From Escherichia phage vB_EcoM_112: a DNA stretch of 64,000 nt. The notes below the pieces were generated by a model. It made no database searches and was not told where the DNA came from. It saw only the letters and a list, made by a program, of their open reading frames with translations. Below are positions 40,207 through 41,548 of the stretch, in pieces. Position 1 is the stretch's first letter, and the number at the start of each line of letters is the position of its first letter. Made by a program: the position numbers and the translations under genes. The stretch lies in sequence record NC_024125.2; one strand, 5' to 3'.

Positions 40207-40392
40207 CTATTCACCTTTAGAAATTTTATCCATAACAATAGCGATTAAACCAATTAAAAATGCTACTACAAGTGAAAACACATTTTCTGCTGTAGTCAAT
40301 AATCCACATATAAATCCAACAAACATTGAAAAACTAAAAGCGGAAGCAGAAATTGCAATAGCAACATTTCGAATTAATTCACAACGTTTCAT
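40207..40392 (-). CDS. small membrane protein
   Basis: 61 aa, two hydrophobic segments; preceded by an early promoter. Confidence 0.45.
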   Translation of the reverse strand: MKRCELIRNVAIAISASAFSFSMFVGFICGLLTTAENVFSLVVAFLIGLIAIVMDKISKGE

Positions 40393-40420
40393 TTTATTCT
40401 CCTCAGTAGTAGATAGGGTA

Positions 40421-40450
40421 ATAGTATCACTACCCTATCTAAAAGTAAAC
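40421..40450 (-). promoter_or_regulatory. T4-type early promoter in a palindromic cassette
   Basis: GTTTAC, 18 nt, TACTAT; the -10 sits inside the GATAGGGTA...TACCCTATC inverted repeat. Confidence 0.6.
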
Positions 40451-40702
40451 TTATTTTTTACGAAAAATTGATTTATATTTATCAGCCCATTTCTCGATGA
40501 CTTTTTCTGGTCCATAGATAACAAAATAATCACCAAACTCTTCACCACCGAGTTGACCGAAATTATCTAATGCATCACGAAGAACTCCATGAGGCATTTC
40601 GCCCATTTTATCTTTCTTGCCAATGTAAATAAACTCAACTTTTACATCAGCAGCTTCAGCAATAAATTCTTGATACATTTTCATTTTATTCTCCAATTTC
40701 AC
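40451..40702 (-). CDS. small internal-protein-like protein with capsid-targeting N-terminus (ipI locus)
   Basis: Starts MKMYQEFIAEAADVK; 83 aa. Confidence 0.55.
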   Translation of the reverse strand: MKLENKMKMYQEFIAEAADVKVEFIYIGKKDKMGEMPHGVLRDALDNFGQLGGEEFGDYFVIYGPEKVIEKWADKYKSIFRKK

Positions 40703-40720
40703 ATTTGTTTTGATAGGGTA

Positions 40721-40750
40721 ATAGTATCACTACTAAAACCCCGTGTAAAC
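40721..40750 (-). promoter_or_regulatory. T4-type early promoter
   Basis: GTTTAC, 18 nt, TACTAT; same GGTAATAGTATCAC core as the neighbouring copies. Confidence 0.6.
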
Positions 40751-40762
40751 AACTTTGTGAAA

Positions 40763-41020
40763 TTATTTTAAATCTTCTAATCGTTTCTTCATCTTAGAAC
40801 CGTTCTTAGCGATTTCTCCTGCATCAGAGCATAATGCTAAAAGTGCTTTAACTTTAGTTTGGTCTCCTTTAAAAGACGAAGGATCGACTGCAGCAGCAAG
40901 TTCTTTAATACGAGAGAAAAGACGCTCAGCTTCAGCTAAAGCCATTCCAAGCTTTACTTCCATACCGTGGGAAGATTCAGTGATAGTAGTTTTTGTAGCA
41001 AACTCTTTGAAAGTTTTCAT
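40763..41020 (-). CDS. small internal-protein-like protein with capsid-targeting N-terminus (ipI locus)
   Basis: Starts MKTFKEFATKTTITES; 85 aa. Confidence 0.55.
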   Translation of the reverse strand: MKTFKEFATKTTITESSHGMEVKLGMALAEAERLFSRIKELAAAVDPSSFKGDQTKVKALLALCSDAGEIAKNGSKMKKRLEDLK

Positions 41021-41050
41021 TTTATTTTCCTAATTAATTTTGATGAGGTA

Positions 41051-41080
41051 ATAGTATCACTACCTCATCAGCATGTAAAC
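41051..41080 (-). promoter_or_regulatory. T4-type early promoter in a palindromic cassette
   Basis: GTTTAC, 18 nt, TACTAT; flanked by TGATGAGGTA...TACCTCATCA inverted repeat. Confidence 0.6.
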
Positions 41081-41092
41081 AACTTTATGAAA

Positions 41093-41548
41093 TTATTTTA
41101 AATCGTCTGCCCAATCGAGTTTAAGAGGCTCTTTGTATTCACGGTCAAGTACAACCGGAATTTGTACATCACCGCTAAATGATAAGGGCCCAACATTATA
41201 AGACAATGTTATATGCGGTGTGTAATCATCAAAATCATGTGTAGCACCTAGTGCCCGCGCATACATGTGTCGACAGCGCAGATATTCAGAATCTAACACA
41301 AGTACAAGAGTCGATCCATCTTGTGTTTTCCATACTTCTAAATGTCCAGAAGAAGCTACTTCAAAACTTCCACTCGATGGAACATATGGAACATTTACTC
41401 TCGAATAACATATAGTCGAATGAATTTTTTCTCTAGGAACTGGATTAGGAACACGTAAAGAGCGCTGGAGTTCTTCCAGCGCGTCAAGTGTTAATTCTGA
41501 AAACTTAGCTGCTACATAAAGACCCGTTGAAAAGTCTTTAAATTCCAT
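41093..41548 (-). CDS. 57B: gp57B, 2H-phosphoesterase-like (T4 Acb1 position)
   Basis: 151 aa with two H-x-T/S motifs (HSTICYS, PHITLSY); sits downstream of 57A as in T4. Confidence 0.7.

Follow-up and report, generated by a model that had tools for sequence, protein, structure and literature searches.

Repeated early promoters as probable portable gene cassettes in the ip slot of Escherichia phage vB_EcoM_112

Introduction

The ip (internal protein) region of Escherichia phage vB_EcoM_112 raises the question of why an early-promoter sequence should be repeated ahead of several small, variable genes, and what the inverted repeats around it might do. The region lies in a stretch of 64,000 nucleotides from this phage (sequence record NC_024125.2), which was analyzed at its full length and is called the window here. 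The window is Tequatrovirus (T-even) DNA, and its ip region is the classic T-even ipI locus. On the minus strand the genes follow one another as gene 1 (dNMP kinase), 57A, 57B, ipV, ipVI, tRNA.4, tRNA.3, tRNA.2 and the tRNA cluster; the variable interval from 57B to tRNA.4 is referred to as the ip slot. An earlier note, made from the letters of the window alone, had likened the repeats to the promoter-early stem-loop (PeSL) cassettes linked to modular gene shuffling in T4-type phages. The present analysis supports this view through a match to the literature, the slot contents of relatives and the positions of breakpoints. With a probability of roughly 80%, the whole explanation is that the repeats are early promoters which act as portable cassettes in the shuffling of ip genes, each with a hairpin that insulates it against read-through.

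Early promoters in the window

The pattern GTTTAC-N18-TA(C/T)(T/A)AT has 12 exact matches in the window, all on the minus strand, compared with 0.08 expected from 100 shuffles. The pattern itself thus stands, but the list of eleven rigid copies in the earlier note was incomplete: ten of them fit exactly, the copy at 32822 reads ATTTAC-N18-TAGTAT, and the exact matches at 8660 and 17603 had been missed. Outside the exact pattern, position 36286 has an N17 variant, and 24936-24977 holds a hairpin promoter with the -10 element TATAGT. T4 early promoters have been described as UP/-35/TGn/-10 (PMC2988021), and the window copies fit this layout, with a GTTTAC-like -35 element, a 17-bp spacer (counted from TTTACA), TGn, a -10 element TAnnAT and A/T-rich upstream sequence. 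In the ip copies, TG stands ahead of the -10 element and the A/T-rich upstream sequence is AAAATAATTT. The ipV promoter scores 9 of 12 in the consensus scan, with TG present, and its counterpart in T4 is the same promoter upstream of ipI. The orientation also fits, as the minus strand is the early-gene strand and a Shine-Dalgarno (SD) sequence with ATG follows 25-61 nt past the -10 element at every copy. Judged by these features, the repeats are considered real T4-type early promoters. A search of Rfam (E-value mode) over positions 36000-42000 returned tRNA genes and weak matches overlapping tRNAs, and nothing at the promoters.

The three copies of the ip locus (40421, 40721 and 41051) share the core GGTAATAGTATCAC, as had been claimed; it occurs exactly three times, at 40417, 40717 and 41047. 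An upstream block, TTCACAAAGTT, had been described as conserved at the promoters. With at most two mismatches allowed, it is found at 5 of 13 copies (9105, 22004, 37013, 40721 and 41051), and is missing from the others. The identity between the 22-kb and 37-kb copies had been put at 33 nucleotides; the actual count is 34. The claim that every copy lies beside a small non-core open reading frame (ORF) is correct for most copies, which adjoin small genes of unknown function. However, the gene after the copy at 30122 is regB, and the copies at 17603 and 22004 are followed by ORFs of 333 and 322 amino acids. At the second IP locus (32756-32851, minus strand), the degenerate early promoter ATTTAC-N18-TAGTAT is located 60 nt upstream of an internal-protein gene, the product of which has 157 amino acids and the N-terminus MKTYQEFITEA.

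Gene content and junctions of the ip slot

The 2.5 kb around the ip elements matches 894 phage records. The top match is Escherichia phage G2540-3 (97.9%), and GiZh, PST and T6 are about 95% identical to the window over the same 2.5 kb. Five gene contents of the slot were counted in nine phages, and more in IMG/VR contigs, with 0, 1 or 2 ip genes. Between 57B and tRNA.4 there is nothing in slur04, ipI in T4, ip5 in RB51, ip5 and ipI in RB10, ipI and ipVI in KAW1E185, and ipV and ipVI in PST, GiZh, G2540-3 and the window; the IMG/VR contigs contain other combinations.

When the insertion points were compared with these relatives, a cassette was found at every ip-slot junction. Each junction is made of two halves, the left moving with the gene upstream and the right with the gene downstream. 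Where 57B or ip5 precedes, the left half reads …GA(C/A)GATTTAAAATAATTTCACAAAGTTGTTTACA and continues into a spacer arm; where ipVI precedes, it is …AAAAAATAAGTTTACTTTTAGATAGGGTA. The right half begins with TAYCTCATCAAAATTAATTAGGAAAATAAAATGAAAAC… before ip5 or ipI, with TACCCTATCAAAACAAA… before ipVI, and with TACCCTATCWACTACTGAGGAG… before tRNA.4. The slur04 junction is what remains of the RB51 junction once ip5 is removed by a crossover in the shared upstream block of 34 nt. The ipV>ipVI junction of the window and the ip5>tRNA.4 junction of RB51 are identical through …GTGATACTATTACCCTATCAA and diverge after it. Two records, L143 (IMG/VR contig 2706796299) and L111 (3300045988_118042), have mismatched chimeric arms, AAATAGGGTA with TACCTCATCA, of which 7 of 10 positions are paired; L143 also has a short tandem duplication, TACCTCATCAagatactatTACCTCATCA. 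These arms look like the products of recent recombination or slippage inside the core.

Breakpoints of indels and replacements among the related phages fall inside the element. Homology to the window ends at 40710 in one record (H73) and at 40387 in another (H77). At the cassette in the e region, homology stops at 36648-36706 in rows sampled across 536 matching records, and only 157 of these records cover at least 80% of the query. The elements are repeated, intergenic, and located in hyperplastic regions beside variable ORFs, as is characteristic of PeSLs; the exceptions are regB and the two ORFs of more than 300 amino acids. Genome comparison shows that ip genes have been deleted, inserted or swapped by recombination in the blocks.

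Conservation of the hairpin

Two of the three ip copies contain perfect inverted repeats with matched changes in the arms, as the earlier note had observed. The 10-bp arms are AGATAGGGTA/TACCCTATCT (40431-40440 / 40411-40420) in one copy and TGATGAGGTA/TACCTCATCA (41061-41070 / 41041-41050) in the other, both around GTGATACTAT. The middle copy at 40721 is not stemless, and its stem is in another register than those at 40421 and 41051. Its left half is of the type found after ip5 or ipI, and its right arm is of the ipVI type; the version of this left half in T4, RB51 and slur04 has ATAGGGT, which pairs with ACCCTAT. At the orthologous ipVI>tRNA.4 site, PST has AGATGGGGTA/TATCTCATCA, which amounts to one double change from A-U to G-C and two G.U pairs. 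The T4 ipI promoter has the same hairpin.

Conservation of the stem as structure was analyzed by an arms-free scan, in which GTTTAC-N14-GTGATACTAT was searched in IMG/VR and JGI metagenome contigs and in phage loci, giving 212 unique sequences. Scored in a fixed register for pairing at 10 positions, they have a bimodal distribution: 24 of the 212 sequences have 9-10, none has 8, and the rest are centred on 4-5. In the controls, registers slid by 1-3 nt gave at most one sequence at 9, and permuted right arms gave a mean of 4.0 at 9. The 24 sequences include at least eight unrelated stems, such as TGGTAGGAGC/GCTCCTACCA, GTAGAAGACT/GGTCTTCTAC and CCGGAAGTTT/AGACTTCCGG. The presence of at least eight unrelated stems in one fixed register indicates that the structure, and not the sequence, has been selected.

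An alignment of 13 distinct arm pairs, which was chosen for pairing, has changes on both sides at all 10 base pairs, and 97.7% of its cells are paired, compared with 37-58% in the slid registers. Since this alignment was selected for pairing, the bimodal histogram is the unbiased evidence. A chance palindrome was rejected on the covariation evidence. The mean minimum free energy of the leaders is -12.9 kcal/mol, which rises to -9.2 kcal/mol after exchange of the 14-nt spacers among sequences. The ip copies and the promoter at 24936-24977 were recovered by a covariance model based on the 13 arm pairs.

The same cassette is present in Klebsiella phage Roth34 between 57B-like and tRNA.4-like genes, with another stem (GGGUU…AACCC). 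Roth34 and at least seven other Klebsiella phages match the window only by a 73-nt island, 40361-40433 (L300 1501-1571), at 93% identity. The island comprises the right half of the cassette and the first tRNA.4 codons; the flanking genes are too diverged for megablast.

Folding and architecture of the hairpin

For the folding analysis, the read-through leader from the -35 element to the start codon was taken as the unit and compared with 200 dinucleotide shuffles. In 6 of the 14 promoters examined first, the stem was matched by none, or nearly none, of the shuffles; with 24936-24977 added, 7 of the 15 early promoters of the window have such a stem. None of the 200 shuffles folds as well at 41051, 40421, 36676, 24948, 20563 and 30122, and the stem at 40721 is weaker. 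At these seven promoters a stable stem-loop adjoins or overlaps the promoter, as in the PeSL definition. In all seven, the promoter spacer holds the left arm, and the right arm follows the -10 element on its 3' side. From general promoter geometry, transcription would start about 7 nt after the -10 element, within the right arm. With the start inside the right arm, both arms would be present only in RNA from upstream, and never in the promoter's own transcript.

The position relative to the ribosome-binding site (RBS) divides these hairpins. In the ip copies and at 36676 and 24948, 17-21 nt separate the end of the stem from AUG and the SD sequence is free; the layout of the T4 e, soc and I-TevI type, with the SD sequence in the stem, is found only at 20563 and 30122. 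A G+C-rich stem followed directly by a U run, as in an intrinsic terminator, is not found among these promoter hairpins, the tails being ACUACUGAGG, AAACAAAUGU and AAAUUAAUUA.

The leaders of two ip-slot genes contain GGAGAATAAAA: at 40392-40402 (minus strand) in the tRNA.4 leader, beginning 9 nt past the 3' end of the hairpin, and at 40684-40694 (minus strand) in the ipVI leader, beginning about 22 nt past it. This sequence is an exact match to the strong consensus of the RegB endoribonuclease, GG*AGRAYARAA, and RNA structure shields from RegB cleavage (PMC3014915). The match suggests that a RegB cut at GGAGAATAAAA would leave an upstream message ending in the hairpin.

Features of the ip slot and other hairpin promoters

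The features of the ip slot, its flanks and the other hairpin promoters are collected in the table below.

Table 1. Positions of the ip-slot elements, their genes and further hairpin promoters in the window.
Feature	Position	Strand	Evidence
57B, fixed upstream flank of the ip slot	41093..41548	-	sequence match; ORF list
Upstream homology block, copy 1, GACGATTTAAAATAATTTCATAAAGTTGTTTACA: last codons and stop of 57B/Acb1, AT-rich stretch, -35 GTTTACA; crossover zone of the ip5 deletion (slur04 vs RB51)	41074..41107	-	
ipV early promoter: -35 GTTTAC 41075-41080, TGn, -10 TACTAT 41051-41056	41051..41080	-	exact pattern match
Hairpin TGATGAGGTA-[GTGATACTAT]-TACCTCATCA, -10 in the loop	41041..41070	-	-17.4 kcal/mol, z -5.0, 0/200 shuffles; covariance model 61.6 bits
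ipV, Ip5-type internal head protein, 85 aa	40763..41020	-	ORF; annotated ipV or Ip5 in GiZh, PST, RB51
Upstream homology block, copy 2, GAAGATTTAAAATAATTTCACAAAGTTGTTTACA: end of ipV (…EDLK*) and -35	40744..40777	-	near-identical to copy 1
ipVI early promoter	40721..40750	-	pattern match, consensus scan
Weaker two-part hairpin, GGGGU/ACCCU and inner UAGUA/UACUA	40715..40742	-	-14.6 kcal/mol, z -2.2, 5/200 shuffles
ipVI, internal protein, 77 aa, N-terminus MKMYQEFIAEA	40451..40684	-	ORF; annotated ipVI in GiZh, PST
tRNA.4 early promoter, without the TTCACAAAGTT block; ipVI stop codon abuts the -35	40421..40450	-	pattern match
Hairpin AGATAGGGTA-[GTGATACTAT]-TACCCTATCT	40411..40440	-	-19.5 kcal/mol, z -4.6, 0/200 shuffles; 62.6 bits
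tRNA.4, predicted membrane protein of 61 aa; fixed flank on the downstream side of the ip slot	40207..40392	-	ORF, relatives
Promoter with -10 in the loop of hairpin ATAGGCUCAUGAU/AUUAUGAGCCUAU; e-region cassette boundary	36668..36705 (36676)	-	-18.1 kcal/mol, z -4.9
regB promoter; spacer UUUUCCUCUUGACUGUGG pairs with the regB SD region (…CAGUUAAGAGGAGAA)	30099..30151 (30122)	-	-22.4 kcal/mol, z -4.8
Hairpin promoter GTTTAC-aagt-TGGCAAGGTT-[atggTATAGT]-AATCTTGCCA, 10-bp stem	24936..24977 (24948)	-	covariance model 30.8 bits, E 3e-4
nrdC.8 promoter; spacer CUGUUCUUCCGUGGU pairs with the ribosome-binding site ACUACGGAGGAACAG	20538..20592 (20563)	-	-22.7 kcal/mol, z -5.6, 0/200 shuffles

The 57B gene is labelled as Acb1 anti-CBASS protein or phosphodiesterase in the annotations of some relatives. 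The N-terminus of ipV, MKTFKEF..., is similar to a capsid-packaging signal known from the N-termini of internal proteins (PMC12373910). Inside the tRNA cluster, a 221-aa ORF (38156-38821, minus strand) corresponds to a coding sequence annotated as homing endonuclease SegB in T4 and PST, and its counterpart in G2540-3 is annotated as group I intron endonuclease. This ORF is a separate source of local gene mobility.

The hairpin at 24936..24977 has a folding energy of -21.7 kcal/mol (z -4.7) and lies upstream of a small hydrophobic ORF. At nrdC.8 and regB the right arm is the SD region, and the stems have 15-18 bp. The names nrdC.8 and nrdC.9 are taken from T2, and regB was identified by a PHROG endoribonuclease match (E 4e-78). 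The read-through RNA of both genes would have a masked RBS, and that of regB would also have a masked RegB cleavage site. The earlier note had read the nrdC.8 promoter copy as the translated C-terminus of an ORF (20531..20908, nrdC.9). The ORF does read through the promoter at 20563, but only because a run of five A residues, which is six in T2, shifts the frame; the T2 counterpart stops at a TAG ending 2 nt before GTTTAC. With this A5 run (20595-20640, minus strand), nrdC.9 reads 25 codons further, which may represent a real variant or a homopolymer sequencing error.

Canonical terminators are found before two other promoters. GGGAGCC-UUCG-GGCUCCC with U6 (22058-22081, minus strand) precedes promoter 22004, and GUCUCC-UUCG-GGAGAC with U6 (25779-25800, minus strand) precedes promoter 25739. 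Both UUCG terminators are 10-25 nt upstream of the -35 element, in a terminator-then-promoter form of the cassette.

Proposed mechanism

In the proposed mechanism, host sigma-70 RNA polymerase would read the T4-type early promoters immediately after infection, and each promoter would make one small gene in a hyperplastic region a separate transcription unit. The ip-slot cassette may be divided into four parts: a block of about 34 nt with the upstream stop codon and the -35 element; a variable spacer arm; the invariant core GTGATACTATTA; and the right arm, followed by the leader, the SD sequence and the first codons. Since the blocks are direct repeats which also occur in co-infecting relatives, whole ip genes are deleted, inserted or swapped by homologous recombination within them, and each gene keeps a promoter; this part is shown by the genome comparison. 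The hairpin would form only on RNA reading in from upstream, and might insulate the cassette from its upstream neighbour.

How the hairpin insulates is a separate matter. Action at the RNA level is slightly favoured, by attenuation of read-through, protection of 3' ends after a cut by RegB or another RNase at the adjacent GGAG, and RBS masking (nrdC.8 and regB), in some mix. A bolder proposal is that the hairpin enclosing the -10 element is a selected RNA element, carried with the cassette, which serves as a general discriminator of transcript origin at T4-type early promoters, in a fixed-register form (ip) and an RBS-masking form (nrdC.8 and regB). This proposal is only tentative. If true, it would explain why arms are matched again after shuffling, for example by the compensatory change in PST.

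Several observations weigh against parts of this explanation. Cassettes that share only the element would show homology ending there under any mechanism, and recombination within the element is directly indicated by the deletion and the chimeras only. Of the 15 window promoters, 8 lack a significant stem that covers them, among these 22004 and 25739 with their terminator hairpin just upstream, so the hairpin is not needed for promoter function. Because the ip hairpins leave the SD sequence uncovered and lack a T-run, neither RBS masking nor intrinsic termination applies to them directly. A terminator scan of the window elements found none, with a T-run after none of the stems. Pairing of the spacer with the SD sequence is not enriched in 130 promoter-like leaders (31, compared with 28.9 +/- 3.9 in spacer-swapped controls), probably because CT-rich spacers are common. 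The literature search gave neither a 5'-end map for this phage nor a 3'-end map for T4.

The choice between RNA and DNA as the folding molecule is affected by a further result of this kind. The internal exceptions in well-paired stems, which were chosen for pairing, are all G.U. With an equal criterion, the asymmetry between G.U and A.C is not significant, at 46 vs 39 overall, and at 10 vs 5 among stems with 7/8 Watson-Crick pairs. The G.U excess was dropped as proof of sense-strand RNA, as it vanishes when both mismatch types are treated alike. RNA remains the more plausible folding molecule.

Alternative explanations

The strongest rival is that the hairpins are terminators or attenuators for RNA from upstream, the function first proposed for PeSL stem-loops. 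The stems are stable (-17 to -22 kcal/mol) and lie between genes, and the stem-loop of PeSL211/210 in RB49/phi1 lowered lacZ expression to a similar extent as the rrnB T1 terminator (PMC2839356). However, the tested RB49 stems are G/C-rich and not homologous to those of the window. A T-run is missing after every one of the hairpin stems at the promoters, which rules them out as canonical terminators; the scan is blank at the three ip elements, and the tails, such as ACUACUGAGG and AAAUUAAUUAGG, are A-rich. The UUCG-loop T6 terminators just 5' of 22004 and 25739 in the same window indicate that the phage uses ordinary terminators where they are needed. Classical termination at the ip cassettes is thus unlikely, and the rival as a whole is given about one chance in four.

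It is less probable that the hairpin shields the 3' end of the upstream ip mRNA after RegB cuts the SD GGAG of the next gene. The exact RegB consensus in the ipVI and tRNA.4 leaders, GGAGAATAAAA, follows the stem on its 3' side, and across unrelated stems the hairpin's base stays a constant 17-21 nt from AUG. Nevertheless, this proposal is purely inferential, the ipV leader has GGAA and not GGAG/U, and compact promoter geometry alone would give the same spacing.

An action of the inverted repeat in DNA is improbable. A cruciform or hairpin might be cut (e.g. by endonuclease VII) or stall replication, and so become a recombination hotspot. Some chimeric junctions join unlike arms over a core of 12-14 nt, which is short for ordinary homologous recombination, and the strand-asymmetry counts (46 vs 39 overall; 10 vs 5 in the best stems) give no significant preference for sense-strand RNA. 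On the other hand, crossovers also occur in the upstream block, outside the palindrome, and the G.U pairs frequent in otherwise perfect stems (TATCTCATCA, AGATGGGGTA, GTGTAGGATG/CATCTTACAC) would turn into A.C mismatches in the opposite strand of a cruciform. Moreover, 10-bp stems with 10-nt loops extrude poorly.

Finally, it is hardly credible that the palindrome serves a dimeric DNA-binding protein as the operator for early-promoter shut-off: it overlaps the -10 element and the shut-off mechanism of early promoters is said to be unknown (PMC2988021), but most early promoters lack a palindrome, and at least eight unrelated arm sequences share one register with all 10 pairs covarying, so that complementarity is kept rather than sequence and a sequence-specific protein operator is ruled out.

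Comparison with known systems

PeSL cassettes are known from published work on this phage group and this locus. The additions made here are modest: junction maps at base level across nine phages, arms-free evidence that the stem is conserved as a fixed-register structure across unrelated sequences, and the pairing of spacer and ribosome-binding site at two early promoters. The T4 internal proteins Ip1-3 each block a different GmrSD restriction enzyme (PMC12373910). The ip slot thus carries counter-defence cargo, and its neighbour 57B is annotated as anti-CBASS Acb1 in some relatives. Promoter-equipped cassettes exchanged between co-infecting T-even phages would help explain fast changes of host range, and the cassette system might be a practical handle for engineering therapeutic phages.

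PeSLs were defined in RB49/phi1, where promoters were shown to be active, one G/C-rich stem to act like a terminator, and mini-circles to be excised (PMC2839356). These elements resemble those of the window in combining a promoter with a stem-loop, most commonly between the -35 and -10 elements or over the -10 element, and ORFs are excised by recombination between flanking copies (PMC2839356). They differ in their near-perfect sigma-70 consensus and polyG/polyC stems, and the T-even elements were called analogues, not homologues (PMC2839356). Promoter and terminator activities and mini-circles are results for RB49/phi1, whereas the window elements are known from sequence alone.

Closer counterparts have been described in the T-even phages. 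According to later accounts of Repoila 1994 (PMC2839356 and PMC4122927), PeSL-like sequences based on T4 early promoters, with weak AT-rich stems, occur at both T-even IP loci. As far as these accounts go, the motifs (EMBO J 13:4181) share with the window the same two IP loci and the variable ip content between T-even phages. The PeSL consensus of PST and T4 is TTTACW-N17-TAYWAT (Comeau, Arbiol & Krisch 2014, PMC4122927). It is the same as the pattern of the earlier note, and the window repeats therefore match PeSL cassettes. The PST/T4 elements belong to the same genus, in a locus that is about 95% identical; they are also intergenic, have an SD sequence and ATG at their 3' end, and are tied to indels and replacements in hyperplastic regions (PMC4122927). 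The stem-loops of PST lie just upstream of the promoter (fig. 3 legend, PMC4122927), which is the layout at 22004 and 25739, whereas the ip-slot stem encloses the -10 element.

A promoter inside a hairpin, in which only the read-through RNA folds and the RBS is masked, is known for T4 e, soc, 49, I-TevI and segB (PMC2988022). As in the window, only RNA started upstream has both arms, and at nrdC.8 and regB the spacer likewise pairs with the SD sequence. The T4 cases are late promoters, in which translation is delayed (PMC2988022), whereas the window promoters are early and the RBS is free at the ip cassettes. If the hairpin does discriminate transcript origin, it would extend the logic of the T4 late promoter within a hairpin to early genes.

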